A stretch of DNA of 53,059 nt from Candidatus Doudnabacteria bacterium (GTDB lineage: Bacteria > Patescibacteriota > Doudnabacteria > UBA920), in contig CAIVSE010000033.1 in NCBI GenBank assembly GCA_903908535.1, positions 1-53,059 on the forward strand, in the 5' to 3' direction. Shown here in pieces: positions 2,872 to 47,058 of this stretch. The position numbers and the translations under genes are program-made. The stretch's first letter is position 1. Each line of letters begins with the position of its first letter. The notes under the pieces were generated by a model. The model was not told the origin of the DNA and made no database searches. It was given only the letters and a program-made list of their open reading frames with translations.

Positions 2872-3068
2872 GTACAGACCTTAATTTTTTATACCGCGGC
2901 CGGCGATTGGCAGTTGTCAGACCATAACTTTGGCCAAAAAGCTTGGCCTTTTACGCCAGTAAAAGTTTTTGGACAAAGTTTTGAGTGAGGTTTTCCGCAG
3001 GAGAAAACCGAACGTGTCTGGCAATCTGCCAACGTTGGACGGACTAAAAAAATTAACGGTCTGTACAG
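2872..3068 (-). repeat. Nested-hairpin intergenic element, copy 1 (TTAA-type termini)
   Basis: The reverse complement aligns with the 13645-13830 copy (..ACGTTCGGTTTTCTCCTGCGGAAAACCTCACTC..TTTGTCCAAAAA..GCTTTTTGGCCAAAGTTATGGTCTG..). An outer inverted repeat GTACAGACC..TTAA / TTAA..GGTCTGTAC bounds it. Confidence 0.8.
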
Positions 3069-6172: not shown

Positions 6173-6393
6173 CTCCGGCGTCACTATATGTGTATTCACT
6201 AATTAAGAAAGGAATACACGGATGTCTAGTTTGTACCGCGGGAGTGCTTTTAAGCTTCCGGCGAACATCCTTAAAGGCGGTTAAGCCTTTTTGCTTCGGC
6301 ATCAATAATAAGAACAGTTTCGCCATGAACAAAAGCACCCCCTAAAAGCAGCCCACTCCATTAAGGACACGGCTGCTTTTGTTATAGCTTTAA

Positions 6394-6575
6394 TTTTCCT
6401 CTAGCACCTCGCCGACTTGTTTTTCAGAACACGTTCGAATTTTCCCAGCGAAAATTCTCACTCCGCTTTCAGCCCAAAAACTTTTTGACTTTCAGTCAAA
6501 AAGACCGGGCTTTTTGGGCTGAAAGAGGGTTCTAAAAAACAAGTACGGCTCGGCCTATTATTGGGAAAATGAAGG
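6394..6575 (+). repeat. Nested-hairpin intergenic element, copy 2
   Basis: Layout: TTTTCCTC..CCTCGCCG / ACTTGTTTTTCAGAAC / ACG / GAATTTTC-CCAGC-GAAAATTC / CTTTCAGCCCAAAAA / CTTTTTGACT-TTC-AGTCAAAAAG / ACC / GCTTTTTGGGCTGAAAG / GTTCTAAAAAACAAGT / CGGCTCGGCC..GGGAAAATGAAGG. Confidence 0.85.
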
Positions 6576-13630: not shown

Positions 13631-13644
13631 TTCCCGCAGAGCGT

Positions 13645-13830
13645 TAATTTTTCTTAGTCCGTCGCCAAGTCCTTTTGCCGGACACGTTCGGTTTTCTCCT
13701 GCGGAAAACCTCACTCAGAACTTTGTCCAAAAACTTTATTTTATTGCTTCAAAATAAAGACCAAGCTTTTTGGCCAAAGTTATGGTCTGGACAAAAGGAC
13801 GTTGGTTCCGACTGTATAGGAAAAATTAAG
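13645..13830 (+). repeat. Nested-hairpin intergenic element, copy 3 (TTAA-type termini)
   Basis: The termini TTAATTTTTCTT...AGGAAAAATTAA pair with each other. The internal modules are the same as in copies 1 and 4. Confidence 0.85.
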
Positions 13831-14014
13831 CCTAACACCGGTCAGACCTTATTTTTTTGAGGCGAGGATTGTATGAGGTAATAATTTATCTTTATAAAGT
13901 CAAGGCCACACCCCCAACGGTTCCCTAGGGTGTGGCAAATAAGTAAAACATTATAGTAAATTATGGACGAGTTCCGCAGACCAAAAAAATTATGGTCTGG
14001 ACGGAAGTATATTT

Positions 14015-28305: not shown

Positions 28306-28893
28306 TCAATCTAAGTCATCCAAGGGGCGCCCTTGCAAACCCATTACAAACTGTAAGTATTTGAGGGGATCGTTATTGAATACATTTAAAATTATATTTT
28401 TATCACATAATGGATCGTCAATAAGGCCTAAAATTCCTTTAAGACTAGAATATTGATAGTTTACAGAGTCTTTTGGGTTTAGGTGAATATAGGCAGATAA
28501 ATTACTAAAATAACTGTCGGTGGTGACCAATTTGGCTTTAAACCTGTCCTGAAACACATGCCCTATATGATTATACTTTTTGTTAAAGTACATTGAATAG
28601 CTGGTGCAAAGTTTTAACACTAATTTGGATATTGGGATTTCCGCGTTTTGCCTAATAAAAAAATGGTAATGGTTAGTCATTAAACAGTAGCTGACTATAG
28701 TAAAGGAGCTTTTTGGCAACGGTTTGACTTTCAAGGGGCGCCCTAGGTAAGGGATATCCAAAATTATGTACAATCTTTTTAAAAAGTTGGAAAAATCTTG
28801 TTTATCCACAAAGATGTCTTGTTTATTATTACCCCTGTTGAAAACGTGATAAAATTGGCCCTTTTGAAGATTTTTGTTATCCCGGAATTGCAT
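28306..28893 (-). CDS. REP-associated tyrosine transposase (RAYT; Y1 HUH transposase, IS200-like fold)
   Basis: It contains QFYHVFNRGNN, the HUH motif in LMTNHYHFFI, GHVFQDRFKAK and the catalytic Tyr region AYIHLNP. The start was set at MQFRDNK because tandem repeats occupy the longer 5' extension. Confidence 0.85.
   Translation of the reverse strand: MQFRDNKNLQKGQFYHVFNRGNNKQDIFVDKQDFSNFLKRLYIILDIPYLGRPLKVKPLPKSSFTIVSYCLMTNHYHFFIRQNAEIPISKLVLKLCTSYSMYFNKKYNHIGHVFQDRFKAKLVTTDSYFSNLSAYIHLNPKDSVNYQYSSLKGILGLIDDPLCDKNIILNVFNNDPLKYLQFVMGLQGRPLDDLD
28322..28334. repeat. GC palindrome AAGGGGCGCCCTT (copy in the 3' codons of the RAYT gene)
   Basis: Read directly from the sequence. The motif was seen only at this locus in the window. 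Confidence 0.8.
28732..28747. repeat. GC palindrome CAAGGGGCGCCCTAGG (inside the RAYT ORF)
   Basis: Read directly from the sequence. It translates as LGRPL. Confidence 0.8.
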
Positions 28894-28914
28894 ATCTAAA
28901 TCATAACAAGAAGC

Positions 28915-28958
28915 AGATAACAAATAGATAACAAAAAGTTAACAGAAAGATAACAAAA
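28915..28958. repeat. Four ~11-bp-phased direct repeats AGATAACAAA / AGTTAACAGA
   Basis: AGATAACAAA starts at 28915, 28926 and 28948, and AGTTAACAGA at 28938. All lie upstream of the RAYT start. Confidence 0.75.
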
Positions 28959-32036: not shown

Positions 32037-32576
32037 TTCTCCGCAGCTTGCTGCGGGGGCCCCTGCCCAGCTACAATAGGAGTATGAGTGAACCCATACG
32101 GAAACGACACAACGTCAATTGCCTGCTTTACCACCTGGTATGCCCTGCCAAGTACCGCAGAAAAGTGTTTTCCGAAGCCGTGGAGGCCACATTGAAGACC
32201 GTATGCTGTGATGCCATAGAATTTGGCTTTGAGATGCGCTTTGTGGAAATCGGGGCTGATGAAGACCATGTGCACTTCCTGATCCAGACTGTCCCGACAA
32301 TGCAGCCAAGCCGCATGGTCCAAATCATCAAAAGTATCACCGGACGCCAAATCTTCGAAAGACACCCGGAAGTCAAGAGAATGCTGTGGGGAGGGCAGTT
32401 TTGGACCAGCGGCTACTACATTAACACGGTAGGCCTCCACGGGAACGAGGAAACGATTAGGAAATACGTGGAAGGACAGGGAAAAGATTACAAATTAATA
32501 CACCGCGGACAGCTGACGTTGTTTGAAGGCCTGACATCCATCGGGCACTGATACCTCGCAGCTTGCTGCGGGGTGA
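32037..32576 (+). mobile_element. IS200/IS605-family insertion sequence (TnpA only)
   Basis: The same 17-nt hairpin-forming sequence CGCAGCTTGCTGCGGGG occurs at both ends (32042-32058 and 32557-32573), flanking a Y1 transposase gene. Confidence 0.85.
32084..32551 (+). CDS. tnpA: IS200/IS605-family Y1 transposase
   Basis: It contains YHLVCPAKYRRKVF, the HUH motif in DHVHFLIQ and the catalytic Tyr region WTSGYYINTVG. Confidence 0.92.
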   Translation: MSEPIRKRHNVNCLLYHLVCPAKYRRKVFSEAVEATLKTVCCDAIEFGFEMRFVEIGADEDHVHFLIQTVPTMQPSRMVQIIKSITGRQIFERHPEVKRMLWGGQFWTSGYYINTVGLHGNEETIRKYVEGQGKDYKLIHRGQLTLFEGLTSIGH

Positions 32577-43360: not shown

Positions 43361-43455
43361 TGTATTGTCCTCCTTGATTGTATTGTATAACAATTGCGTT
43401 TCGGTATCAATTATTATATGATGAAAGTGTAAACCTGTCAATAGCCTTTATTTTT

Positions 43456-44382
43456 ATGCCAGAACTTCCCGAAGTCCAAACCATTGTTTCCGAATTGAAC
43501 CGGAAACTTAAAAATAAAACTATTAAATCGGCGGCAGTTAACGAGCCGAAAATGGTCAGTCTGGGGCCGCGTACCGTGAGTAACCGGCGGTCAGTTCCGG
43601 CGCGCGACGTTAAGGTGTTTATTGGTTTGCTGAAGGGGCGGATAATTCTTTCGGTCAAACGGCGGGCAAAGCTGCTGATATTTGACTTGTCCGGACAGTT
43701 AGCGATTTTAGTTCATCTTAAAATGACCGGGCAGTTTATTTTTGAGGACAAAAGATTGCGGTTGCTTACCGGCGGCAAATATAAAATGTTCAATAATCCG
43801 GGCGCGCCATTGGTGCAATTACCTGGCAAGCATACCCACGTAGTCCTTACGTTTACGGATGGGTCACATCTGTATTTTAACGATATCCGCAAGTTTGGCT
43901 ACATGAAGCTGGTGCGGGAAGATGAACTGGGTTCGGTGAAAGAATTACAGGGCTACGGGCCGGAGCCGCTGGGTAAAAAATTCACGTTTAATGTCTTTCA
44001 ATCCATTTTATCCCAAAGGCCCAAGGGAAAAATTAAGCAGGTGCTGATGGATTCTTCCCTGGTGGCCGGCATCGGCAATATTTACAGCGATGAAATTTTA
44101 TTCCATGCCAAAATCAGGCCCGCGCGGGCGGTGGCCGGCCTTACAGAAAAAGATATTAAAGCCGTCTATAAATACATCCCCTTTGTGTTAAAAAAAGCCA
44201 TTGCGGCCAAGGGCTCCAGCGTTGGCGACTTTGTCAGAAGCGACGGCAGCTGGGGGCAAATGGGCAAGTTCCATTTTGTCTACGGGCGCAAAGGCCAGCC
44301 CTGTAAAATTTGCGGGACTCCGATTGAAACAGTCAGGATGAACGGGCGCACTGGCTCGTATTGCCCGAGCTGCCAAAAATAG
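43456..44382 (+). CDS. mutM: Formamidopyrimidine-DNA glycosylase
   Basis: It starts MPELPEV, has an H2TH region (LMDSSLVAGIGNIYSDEILF) and a C-terminal zinc finger CKICGTPI...YCPSCQ. Confidence 0.9.
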   Translation: MPELPEVQTIVSELNRKLKNKTIKSAAVNEPKMVSLGPRTVSNRRSVPARDVKVFIGLLKGRIILSVKRRAKLLIFDLSGQLAILVHLKMTGQFIFEDKRLRLLTGGKYKMFNNPGAPLVQLPGKHTHVVLTFTDGSHLYFNDIRKFGYMKLVREDELGSVKELQGYGPEPLGKKFTFNVFQSILSQRPKGKIKQVLMDSSLVAGIGNIYSDEILFHAKIRPARAVAGLTEKDIKAVYKYIPFVLKKAIAAKGSSVGDFVRSDGSWGQMGKFHFVYGRKGQPCKICGTPIETVRMNGRTGSYCPSCQK

Positions 44383-44391
44383 CGCTTTCAT

Positions 44392-44575
44392 TTTTCCCCT
44401 GGTCCCTCGCCGACTGGCTTTTTGGGACACGCTCATGTTTCTCCAGCGGAAACACTCGCTCATAACTTTGTCCAAAAACTTTATTTTACTGCTTTAAAAT
44501 AAAGACCAAGCTTTTTGGCCAAAGTTATGGTCCCAAAAAGCCAGTTCGGCTCGGCCTAGTATGGGAAAAATGAAG
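44392..44575 (+). repeat. Nested-hairpin intergenic element, copy 4
   Basis: TTTTCCCCTGGTCCCTCGCCG / ACTGGCTTTTTGGGAC (perfect 16-bp pairing with GTCCCAAAAAGCCAGT) / ... / CGGCTCGGCC..GGGAAAAATGAAGC. Confidence 0.88.
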
Positions 44576-44584
44576 CAATTCAGA

Positions 44585-44768
44585 CCCCTAATTTTTTAGC
44601 AAAGACCGAGCCGTTGTTGTTTTTCGGGACCGTCAGTTGGCCCAAAAAGCCTGGTCTTTTTGACTTAAAGTCAAAAAGTTTTTGGGACAACTGCCGAAGG
44701 AGTATTTTTGCTGGGAAAATACGACTGTGTCCTGAAAAACAACACGGCGAGGGACCAGGGGAAAATGG
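44585..44768 (-). repeat. Nested-hairpin intergenic element, copy 5 (convergent with copy 4)
   Basis: The reverse complement aligns module by module with copy 2. The 21-nt terminus is identical to that of copy 4. Confidence 0.88.
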
Positions 44769-44825
44769 AGGCATGGAGGCTTTGGCGCCTTTACTCGCCA
44801 GGCCCTATTTGTTAAACTTAATTAT

Positions 44826-45314
44826 ATGGCTATCAAACTTGGCAACCAAGCTCCGGAAATTAACTTGCCGGATCAGGACGGAAAAACGCACAAACTTTCT
44901 GATTACCTCGGCCAGTGGGTTTTGGTTTATTTTTATCCCAAGGACGATACGCCGGGATGCACTGCGGAAGCCTGCAGTCTGCGCGACAACCTGCCCAAAT
45001 TCGCCAACACCGGCGCCGTGGTTTTGGGTGTCAGTACCGACAGCGTGGACAGCCACAAAAAATTCGCGGATAAGTATAAACTGCTGTTTACTTTGCTTGC
45101 AGACGAGGATAAAAAAACCGTGGCGGCCTATGGCGTGTGGCAGGAAAAAAGCATATATGGCAAAAAATATATGGGCATCGCGCGGACATCATTTTTAATC
45201 AGTCCTGCCGGCAAAATCGCCAAAATTTATGAGCAGGTCAAGCCGGAAGCCCATGCTGAAGAAGTTATTGAAGATTTGAAACAATTAAAATCCGCCAGCC
45301 GGCTGAACAAATAA
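44826..45314 (+). CDS. bcp: Thiol peroxidase / peroxiredoxin Bcp
   Basis: The motif FYPKDDTPGCTAEAC is present in a 162-aa protein. Confidence 0.9.
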   Translation: MAIKLGNQAPEINLPDQDGKTHKLSDYLGQWVLVYFYPKDDTPGCTAEACSLRDNLPKFANTGAVVLGVSTDSVDSHKKFADKYKLLFTLLADEDKKTVAAYGVWQEKSIYGKKYMGIARTSFLISPAGKIAKIYEQVKPEAHAEEVIEDLKQLKSASRLNK

Positions 45315-45662: not shown

Positions 45663-46880
45663 ATGCCTAAAAAGTCCTGTCCTTACTGCGGCAACAATCC
45701 GGTGCCGCATTTGATCAATTGGTATTTCGAAAGTTTAAACGTGCTGTTTACGCCCATCCGCCAGCGCCTGTTTTATAACGCCCTGTCGGAAAAAATAGGG
45801 AAGATGGCCCAAAATTGGGATTTGGGCTTAAAGGCCGTGGGTTTGCTACAATCGGTAAAAATTATCACGTCCCAAAGCGACATCCATGCCTGCAAAGTCG
45901 GGCGGGCGGAAGTTTTGTGGGAAGATGCCCTTAGGCGCGACATTAATATGCAAGAATTACTGCTGTTTGGTCGGCCGTTTGATACCTACCTTGCCGAAAA
46001 AAACGGGCGGACTATTTTATTCAGCGGTTTGCCGCGGCCAAAAAATTACAGCAAGTCAGCGCTGGAAACCATGGATGACAAAATAGCGTTAAAACATAAA
46101 CTTAAGGAAATAAATTTACCGGTGCCGCGGGGCGGCGTGGCCCTTACTTTTTTACAGGCCAAAAAGATATTTAACGAAATTAGCAAGCCGGTAATAGTCA
46201 AGCCGCGCGAAGGCAGCCGCGGCCGTCACAGCACCACCCATGTTTACACTTTAGAGCAGCTGAAGAAAGCCTTTAAAGTCGCCAAGCAGTTATGTTTGTG
46301 GGTGATTGTGGAAGAACATTTAAAGGGGCCGGTTTATCGCGGTACAGTGATTAACTATAAAACCGTTGGCGTATTGCGCGGCGACGCGCCCAGGGTGACG
46401 GGAGATGGAACCCATAGTATACTCGACCTGGTCACTGCCAAAAATGCCGCGCCGCATGAACGGATAGCGGATATAAAATTAGATGACCGCGCCAAAGTTT
46501 TTTTGTCCAGGCAAAATTTAAGCTTCGGATCCATTCCTAAAAACGGCGAAGTCGTGGAGACTTCGGAGAAAATTGGCTTGAGCTATGGCGGCAGTTCCAG
46601 CGAAGATTATGACATTTGCCACCCGGATAATCTTAATATGTTTGAAGACGCGGCTAAAATAATGGGCGACCCAATTGTGGGCTTTGATTTTATTATAGAG
46701 GACATTGCCAAATCCTACAAAGAACAAAAGTGCGGATTTATAGAAGCCAATTCTTTGCCGTTTATAGATTTGCACCACCATCCGCTGCTCGGCCGGCCGC
46801 GCAATGCCGCGGCCGCGGTCTGGGATTTAGTCTTCCAAAAGGACATTGGCTCTGTCTGTGTGGAAAAATTAAGGTTTTGA
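45663..46880 (+). CDS. ATP-grasp enzyme resembling the N-terminal ATP-grasp module of cyanophycin synthetase (no Mur-ligase module)
   Basis: The segments DDKIALKHKLKEINLPVPRG, PVIVKPREGSRGRH, VIVEEHLKGPVYRGTVIN, PRVTGDGTHSILDL and FIEANSLPFIDLHHHP follow the recalled CphA ATP-grasp pattern. Confidence 0.7.
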   Translation: MPKKSCPYCGNNPVPHLINWYFESLNVLFTPIRQRLFYNALSEKIGKMAQNWDLGLKAVGLLQSVKIITSQSDIHACKVGRAEVLWEDALRRDINMQELLLFGRPFDTYLAEKNGRTILFSGLPRPKNYSKSALETMDDKIALKHKLKEINLPVPRGGVALTFLQAKKIFNEISKPVIVKPREGSRGRHSTTHVYTLEQLKKAFKVAKQLCLWVIVEEHLKGPVYRGTVINYKTVGVLRGDAPRVTGDGTHSILDLVTAKNAAPHERIADIKLDDRAKVFLSRQNLSFGSIPKNGEVVETSEKIGLSYGGSSSEDYDICHPDNLNMFEDAAKIMGDPIVGFDFIIEDIAKSYKEQKCGFIEANSLPFIDLHHHPLLGRPRNAAAAVWDLVFQKDIGSVCVEKLRF

Positions 46881-47055
46881 TTTTCCCCTGCCATAGAGGG
46901 AGTCGGAACCATTTTTTAGGACCGTCAGTTGGCCCAAAAAGCCTGGTCTCCGACGATACGTCGGAGTTTTTGGGACAACTGTCGAGTGCAGTATTGGCGC
47001 TGGCCAATACAAACGTGTCCTGAAAAATGGGCCGGCGACGACTTTGGGGAAAATG
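46881..47055 (-). repeat. Nested-hairpin intergenic element, copy 6 (fills the whole gap between two convergent genes)
   Basis: It has TTTTCCCC...GGGGAAAA termini. The P2/P3 helices match copy 5, while both side hairpins are replaced by unrelated but still self-complementary sequences. Confidence 0.88.
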
Positions 47056-47058
47056 AAA

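Follow-up and report, generated by a model that had tools for sequence, protein, structure and literature searches.

The window, which is the whole 53,059-nt stretch analysed here, constitutes an entire contig of the 1.04-Mb genome of a Candidatus Doudnabacteria bacterium (46.5% GC, 93 contigs, 88% complete). Two elements of a nested-hairpin repeat, designated copy 4 and copy 5, are located in the gap between a mutM/fpg gene and a gene for a bcp-like peroxiredoxin (Table 1). The stop codon of mutM lies 1–2 nt upstream of the head of copy 4, and the ATG of the bcp-like gene lies 55–60 nt downstream of the head of copy 5. The true start of mutM is probably near position 43456 because the Pfam domain starts at residue 27. 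The first-pass annotation had described two tail-to-tail elements in this gap, and both were recovered with a HMM and a covariance model. Because the model hits end at 44575 and 44585, the tails are separated by about 9 nt. A promoter scan of the mutM-bcp spacer found nothing. The exact Bcp protein has no database record. A search for an empty or single-copy site gave none: the bcp-bearing relatives had no adjacent mutM, and 60 metagenomic mutM loci (up to 77% amino-acid identity) had neither bcp nor the element downstream. In the same-genus genome (G001), the mutM matches were only fragmentary and contained internal stop codons.

Table 1. Positions of the genes, repeat copies and helices discussed in the text (window coordinates unless a locus prefix is given)
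Feature	Position	Strand	Evidence or remark
mutM/fpg gene	43378–44382	+	longest ORF; Pfam Fapy_DNA_glyco, H2TH, zf-FPG
Copy 4 of the nested-hairpin repeat	44387–44575	+	covariance model R1, 191 bits; inverted repeats; RNA fold
Copy 4 head/P1	44387–44398 with 44563–44574	+	
Copy 4 head 21-mer	44392–44412	+	TTTTCCCCTGGTCCCTCGCCG
Copy 4 P2	44413–44428/44530–44545	+	
Copy 4 P2a hairpin	about 44432–44456	+	loop TCCAGCG
Copy 4 P3	44461–44478/44512–44529	+	
Copy 4 Hb	44479–44488/44495–44504	+	
Copy 4 bulge	44505–44511	+	ACCAAGC
Spacer between the tails of copies 4 and 5	44576–44584	.	about 9 nt
Copy 5	44585–44770	-	different sub-lineage from copy 4; covariance model, 181 bits; BLAST; RNA fold
Copy 5 P2	44615–44630/44729–44744	-	
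Copy 5 P3	44631–44648/44679–44696	-	
Copy 5 Hb	44656–44666/44668–44678	-	
Copy 5 P2a	about 44697–44728	-	
Copy 5 head 21-mer	44745–44765	-	same as in copy 4; putative converted tract
bcp-like peroxiredoxin gene	44826–45314	+	Pfam AhpC-TSA, Redoxin
Family copy	2879–3055	-	HMM and covariance model
Family copy	6389–6575	+	HMM and covariance model
Family copy	13642–13831	+	HMM and covariance model; followed by a second-family copy
Family copy	46877–47058	-	covariance model
Distant RAYT-like Y1 transposase ORF	28306–28923	-	weak: 32 bits to the REP-associated tyrosine transposase model (cut-off 80)
Bona fide IS200 transposase	32048–32551	+	122 bits
Further Y1 gene	C36:4612–4974		
Further Y1 gene	C26:1949–2290		
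Second-family copy	about 13846–14006		
Second-family copy	C29:29293–29469		
Second-family copy	C29:31306–31480		
Second-family copy	C29:34485–34600		
Second-family copy	C26:6973–7146		
Second-family copy	C85:2594–2772		
Second-family copy	C58:396–570		
Second-family copy	C78:13679–13850		
Second-family copy	C40:2244–2412		

The RNA fold of copy 4 has a predicted energy of −87.4 kcal/mol (z −11.3), and that of copy 5 has one of −67.1 kcal/mol. The internal variants named earlier were all present in an inverted-repeat scan: Hb CTTTATTTTA/TAAAATAAAG and P3 CATAACTTTGTCCAAAAA in copy 4, and Hb CTTTTTGACTT/AAGTCAAAAAG and P3 CGGCAGTTGTCCCAAAAA in copy 5. The outer 21-mers are exact reverse complements, as had been claimed. 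At up to three mismatches, TTTTCCCCTGGTCCCTCGCCG has only these two matches in the window, and shuffled sequences are expected to give 0. With one indel allowed in a T-run, the identity of the two heads reaches about 27 nt. The two copies are 72% identical by BLAST, and the identity of their bodies in the family alignment is 0.61. The body of copy 5 is 93% identical by BLAST to C92:9935–10057. The first 87 nt of copy 4 are 94% identical to C39:141–227, including the same 21-mer and P2.

The pair had been described as a super-palindrome of 377 nt. Such a palindrome is present, but it is imperfect: complementarity is 74% over the 91-nt arms and 77% over the 57-nt arms, and the centre of the pair (the tails and the spacer) is only 42–55% alike. 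When the 399-nt pair region was folded as single-stranded DNA (−120.4 kcal/mol, z = −16), the heads formed an outer stem and the bodies folded on themselves. The head-head duplex (−32.3 kcal/mol) is stronger than the P1 helix of either copy. Extrusion of the whole 377-nt unit as a cruciform, which had been suggested, was judged unlikely given the low symmetry of the centre and the tendency of each element to fold back on itself. Within each element, the near-perfect P3-Hb hairpin is the better candidate for a cruciform.

Both copies belong to a family of repeats of about 183 nt, for which 39 nhmmer hits and 37 covariance-model hits were obtained in this genome. The fold consists, in order, of P1 (head with tail), a junction, P2, P2a, P3, the terminal hairpin Hb and a 3' bulge. 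The junction reads TCGCCG on the head side and CGGCTC on the tail side; P2a is a side hairpin on the 5' arm with a conserved CCAGCG loop, and the bulge is conserved as ACCARGC. P1 is typically 10–18 bp long and includes compensatory variants such as TTCCTTTCCCC/GGGGGAAGGAA. In the family helices, 92.8% of the cells pair, compared with 73.7% in shuffled sequences and 40–58% with slid partners. Both sides were altered in 40 of the 48 pairs of the family alignment. Among the Rfam 15 models, only three tRNAs reached the gathering score in the window; across 44300–44850 there were only sub-threshold, miRNA-type noise hits and no family match for the repeat.

The heads usually begin 0–20 nt past the stop codon of a co-oriented gene, in this genome and in others. 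In most single copies the distance is 0–3 nt, for example TAG/CCTTCA, TAA/CCTCCA and TAG/TTTCA (the slash marks the boundary), and positions 44383–44390 of the window follow the same pattern. The genes upstream of the copies are mutually unrelated; therefore, the repeat is a dispersed element rather than a leader or trailer of particular genes. The post-ORF position, together with the conservation of structure over sequence, had prompted a comparison with integron attC sites. This assignment was dropped because inspection by eye found no R''/R' core sites.

A BLAST search of the pair against 40 relatives gave nothing beyond its own genome, and family relatives elsewhere were found only by the covariance model and a motif scan. 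In the wider survey, species-representative genomes were scanned for the motifs and then searched with the covariance model. Members were identified in MAGs of Wolfe-, Azam-, Moranii-, Pacei-, Collier-, Woese-, Berkel- and Saccharibacteria, with 2–11 copies each. Among the other genomes of the same class, 4 of 145 matched, with one or two copies each, and the same-genus genome had none. The roughly 37 copies found here make this genome an outlier among its relatives and point to a recent lineage-specific burst. The lineage-specific expansion and the patchy spread argue for mobility, and the repeat is probably a non-coding, non-autonomous mobile DNA element. As a structured element of the candidate phyla radiation (CPR), it appears to be undescribed.

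Because the ends of copies 4 and 5 are identical while their bodies differ, the termini had been proposed as the functionally constrained part, for example as a site for a mobilising enzyme. The segments of 26 full copies of this genome (325 copy pairs) were compared, and the termini were no better conserved than the interiors. The mean pairwise identity was 0.56 for the 5' strand of P1, 0.62 for the head junction, 0.64 for the 21-mer and 0.51–0.59 for the tail, against 0.66 for P2a, 0.71–0.75 for P3 and 0.89 for the ACCAAGC bulge. All invariant columns of the family alignment are interior, and the best-kept positions are unpaired interior motifs. The same interior motifs survive in distant genomes. 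When the other adjacent pairs were tabulated, their termini were not shared (head identities of 0.50, 0.81 and 0.46). By the criterion that the first-pass annotation itself had set, the proposal of constrained termini is not supported.

Mosaicism was also not focused on the ends. The identities of head and body show almost no correlation (r = 0.18). Among copies with less than 70% overall identity, the median identical run measures 12 nt and the 90th percentile is 29 nt; the longest run, of 64 nt, is a P3-Hb core common to C29:3090 and C84:18287, the shells of which differ. Identical blocks are thus common and often interior, and mosaicism is therefore a general property of the copies. The family is built from reassorting modules, namely a shell, a core and alternative cores, and short tracts move between copies.

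The 21-mer shared by copies 4 and 5 was examined against this background. It occurs exactly at three sites in the genome: copy 4, copy 5 and C39:141. Copies 4 and 5 are the only pair with 100% identity in this segment among the 325, and they are one of the four intact adjacent pairs. From the per-column frequencies, 0.007 such pairs are expected among 325. The identity is not due to chance. The head-tail duplex of copy 4 has an energy of −14.7 kcal/mol. That of copy 5 has only −7.1 kcal/mol, is out of register and ranks 23rd of 26. The tail of copy 5, GCTAAAAAATTAGGGG, calls for a head of the TAATTTTTT type, and a head complementary to it would be expected to read CCCCTAATTTTTTAGC... In the relatives of the copy 5 body, the head and tail of each copy match. 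At C39:141, the head of copy 4 recurs together with its P2, and this head therefore appears native to the copy 4 lineage.

Gene conversion, which had been offered as the alternative to constrained termini, fits these observations best: among the 325 copy pairs only this adjacent one shares the 21-mer, P1 of copy 5 is mismatched, and the head of copy 4 appears native. The identical tract is bounded by divergence, with 21 nt exact within bodies of 0.61 identity, and it is discordant with the rest of copy 5. The simplest course of events is as follows. Copies 4 and 5 are heterotypic members, probably of independent derivation, of a heads-out doublet, an arrangement that the family strongly prefers. 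Copy 5 would have arrived with a head matching its own tail, and a tract of 21–27 nt would then have been copied from the head of copy 4 onto copy 5, overwriting the original head. The transfer could have proceeded by gene conversion or by intramolecular template switching of the quasi-palindrome-correction type between the inverted neighbours. With moderate confidence, judging from the sequences, we regard the shared head as the footprint of a short local transfer from copy 4 to copy 5 and not of a family-wide constraint; both the event and its direction are deduced from these comparisons. The 21-mer departs from the family consensus at two positions only (CCTGG versus CTTAG). Therefore, the case for conversion rests on these two bases, the adjacency of the copies and the broken P1 of copy 5.

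In quasi-palindrome correction by template switching, or by short-tract conversion between inverted repeats (Ripley; Lovett), an imperfect inverted repeat is made perfect. The present case is similar in that a short tract would have been perfected, the neighbouring arm would be the donor, and the sequence is divergent on both sides. It differs in that the arms are about 330 nt apart, further than in the classical hotspots, and the event is deduced from one locus. A doublet of a Wolfebacteria MAG (MGIR01, locus L097) has outer termini that are identical at 18 of 19 positions on different bodies. It may hint at something more systematic than a sporadic event acting on doublets. Taken alone, the identical 21-mers reflect an event that is minor and local.

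The strong head-head duplex raises another possibility, that selection for mutual pairing made the heads complementary through compensatory evolution and that the doublet acts as one folded unit of RNA or single-stranded DNA, perhaps as a bidirectional module with a 3'-end, stability or terminator role. The outer stem of about 30 bp in the region fold and the placement of heads behind co-oriented stop codons would agree with such a role, as would the Hb hairpin followed by a T-run, which reads terminator-like on the antisense strand. On the head-to-tail strand, G·T wobbles also exceed A·C mismatches (64 versus 28). However, this excess is only a weak sign of strand-specific selection because it is confined to a few positions in related copies. 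Complementary heads were found in one of the four intact doublets, or perhaps two, and the head of copy 4 can pair equally with its own tail. Selection for mutual pairing is consequently considered quite improbable.

The arrangement of the pair recurs throughout the genome. Two full or nearly full copies are adjacent at six loci (C5, C9, C33, which is the present pair, C44, C80 and C92), and at three more (C40, C58 and 46.8–47.1 kb of the window) a full copy has the tail end of a partner behind it. These nine doublets are all convergent; with random orientation, the probability that n doublets are all convergent is 0.25 to the power n. When two-headed and shell forms are counted, the heads point outward at 13 of the 13 multi-hit loci. 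For 37 insertions scattered at random over 769 intergenic spacers, 0.8–1.8 doublets are expected and 6–9 were observed (P for six or more ≤0.004; P<0.005). The spacers are 0–41 nt long, the tails are unrelated, and the module types of the partners differ at every locus. The partner bodies are 0.52–0.61 identical, if anything less alike than random pairs, and the genome contains no homotypic doublet. No doublet has been duplicated as a unit in the genome; the combination of partners and the spacer are different each time. At four of the nine junctions, the spacer is 0–3 nt and the sequence reads ...TKAAG/CTTMA..., which suggests placement exactly at the tail boundary. In MGIR01, both adjacent pairs are also convergent (L097 7616–7953 and L069 3475–3828). 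The heads-out doublet rule is genuine and apparently undescribed. It may stem from self-targeted insertion at the tail or from the selective loss of other arrangements.

This recurrence also bears on the quality of the assembly. A false pair could arise from a chimeric join or from a segment placed in the wrong orientation at a repeat, and several contigs of the draft end in or beside repeat copies; moreover, the locus carries a 21-nt inverted repeat. However, intact single-copy genes flank the pair, which sits in the interior of a 53-kb contig. The shared 21 nt are shorter than any read, and the remainder is 61–74% alike and would not collapse. The heads-out layout is seen at at least eight other loci with different partners and in the independently assembled Wolfebacteria MAG. 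An assembly artefact is thus very improbable.

Several loci carry altered forms of the doublet. The copy at 46877–47058 has lost its plus-strand partner except for a tail remnant at about 46831–46875 of the window; because this remnant adjoins the copy, the locus is also counted as a heads-out doublet. The last 16 or so codons and the stop codon of an ATP-grasp ORF (45663–46880) consist of the P2-3'/tail remnant at 46831–46880. Two-headed forms, in which both ends are heads and no tails are present, were found at C39:135–342, C37:490–609 and C92:11185–11306. They resemble doublets from which a deletion between P3 or P2 strands has removed both tails. Such forms are the expected deletion remnant of a heads-out doublet and are therefore indirect evidence that doublets recombine. 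The earlier suggestion that the palindrome is recombinogenic gains support in this indirect manner from the derivatives at C39, C37 and C92. In MGIR01, L097 and L069 share an identical element of about 140 nt with the ends CGCGCCGCCTGT...ACAGGCGGCGCG, each abutting or nested in other family members; at L097, it comes directly after a head fragment of another type.

The shell and the core can also be separated. At C22, a truncated plus-strand copy lies tail to tail with a core-less shell of about 90 nt (C22:28283–28372), which consists of a head, a P2 hairpin and a tail and has no P2a, P3 or Hb. This shell suggests that shell and core are separable modules. At C40 and C58, the core of the minus-strand partner shell is replaced by a second repeat family. 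The replacement of cores offers another origin for the shared head: the pair could be the relic of a homotypic inverted dimer of the copy 4 type, produced by fold-back or inverted duplication, in which the region from P2 to the tail (about 160 nt) was later replaced by sequence of the copy 5 type. Besides the altered cores at C40, C58 and C22, the A-type head remnant that flanks an unrelated body at L097 of the Wolfebacteria MAG and the reassortment of heads and bodies would be compatible with this origin. It requires a replacement of 160 nt, as opposed to a transfer of 21–27 nt, and would start from a homotypic doublet, a form seen nowhere; the partner bodies tend, if anything, to be less similar than those of random pairs. 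The variable spacers and unrelated tails argue for independent insertions. A relic dimer therefore seems unlikely, and the local transfer from copy 4 to copy 5 is preferred.

For the doublets as a class, we tentatively propose that they could be made by site- and orientation-specific insertion of a hairpin exactly at the tail boundary of a resident copy or into its hairpin. Such hairpin-into-hairpin transposition would be a patescibacterial system not described before and would probably proceed via single-stranded DNA, and head-head complementarity, as in the present pair and at L097, would be a recurrent by-product. The proposal is possible rather than probable, and it is prompted by the 0–3-nt junctions, the core-less shells, the core replacement and the two-headed fusions. 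SbcD (TIGR00619) was not found in the 88%-complete genome, and the same search gave hits in 13 of 14 control genomes. The absence of SbcD may fit a tolerance of long quasi-palindromes.

Candidate mobilising enzymes were sought among the Y1 (IS200/RAYT-like) transposases, for which four genes are present in the genome (Table 1). None of them is flanked by the hairpin repeat, and their flanks have no similarity to the element or its ends. IS200/RAYT ends were thus rejected as the source of the element ends. The copies have inverted ends of the form CTTMATTTT...AAAATKAAG. Outside P1, no consistent direct repeat that could represent a target-site duplication was found in 28 copies, the exact ends of which are not defined by any empty site.

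The second repeat family consists of nine copies of about 170 nt, is unrelated to the hairpin family and has similar ends (AGACCTTATTTTTTT...AAAAAAATAATGGTCT). It has an internal GC hairpin (GGCCACACCC...GGGTGTGGC) and a 3' hairpin, CAGACC-A7TTAT-GGTCTG. It often follows directly on a nested-hairpin tail or takes the place of the core within a partner shell. The ends of this family are the only support for a shared end-recognition signal, which would concern the outermost 10–15 nt and not the 21-mer. The CAGACC-loop-GGTCTG hairpin was also considered as a general insertion target; this was rejected because only four such hairpins exist, all of them within the second repeat family.

REP units are short palindromes of 20–40 nt with a conserved end tetranucleotide, GTAG or CGTC. 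In a REPIN, the doublet is the replicative unit, its members are better conserved than singlets, and the same doublet recurs; the cognate RAYT gene is flanked by the repeats. REPINs and BIMEs are inverted, over-represented and hairpin-forming doublets (PMC3116915). The present family resembles them in that the palindromic repeats are extragenic, inverted doublets with a short spacer are far commoner than chance, hairpins are predicted in single-stranded DNA or RNA, and Y1 transposase genes occur in the same genome. However, the unit here is about 183 nt long with five helices, and the heads begin with CTTMATTTT and have no GTAG/CGTC tag. Each doublet combines heterotypic partners and apparently does not replicate as one unit. 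The mean covariance-model scores of doublet members (about 170) and singlets (about 160) have overlapping ranges. No cognate RAYT flanked by the hairpin repeat was found among the four Y1 genes.

These comparisons are relevant to the idea that the termini are transposase-recognition inverted repeats and that identical heads bound a composite, REPIN-like doublet, which would be the preferred mobile unit. The inverted ends of each element, the similar ends of the unrelated 170-nt family, the excess of always-inverted doublets and the four Y1 genes are consistent with a composite unit. Nevertheless, the termini are no better conserved than the interiors and the other doublets have unlike heads. 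Partners and spacers vary from doublet to doublet, none is duplicated as a unit, and doublet members score no better against the model than singlets. Together with the dissimilar flanks of the Y1 genes and the lack of a visible target-site duplication, these observations make a composite mobile doublet improbable.

The palindromic elements of Rickettsia (RPEs) are structure-conserving selfish repeats of 100–150 nt that occur in a reduced genome without a known transposase. The family described here is likewise a structure-conserving selfish palindrome in a reduced genome, and its tail remnant forms the last codons of the ATP-grasp ORF. It differs in belonging to another phylum and in having no sequence similarity to RPEs. 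We know of no heads-out doublet rule described for RPEs. Bacterial MITEs with structured interiors include Correia/NEMIS, ERIC, RUP and BOX elements (reviewed in PMC2229807 and PMC10969869). The present repeat is similar to them in size, inverted termini, intergenic location beside gene ends, modular or mosaic build and number of copies per genome. In contrast to MITEs, no target-site duplication was seen, and a comparison of the flanks of the four Y1 genes gave no parent insertion sequence. Furthermore, the helices of the element are kept by abundant compensatory change, and its unpaired motifs are conserved across distant lineages. Both of these properties are unusual for decaying MITEs.

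The pair between mutM and bcp is one instance of the heads-out doublet rule in a CPR repeat family, and this rule is a more interesting result than the identical 21-mers. It is strict and is reminiscent of REPINs and BIMEs, although the element is five times as large and lacks a recognisable RAYT partner. If the rule reflects self-targeting insertion, it would offer a way to find the mobilising enzyme in organisms not yet amenable to growth on their own.
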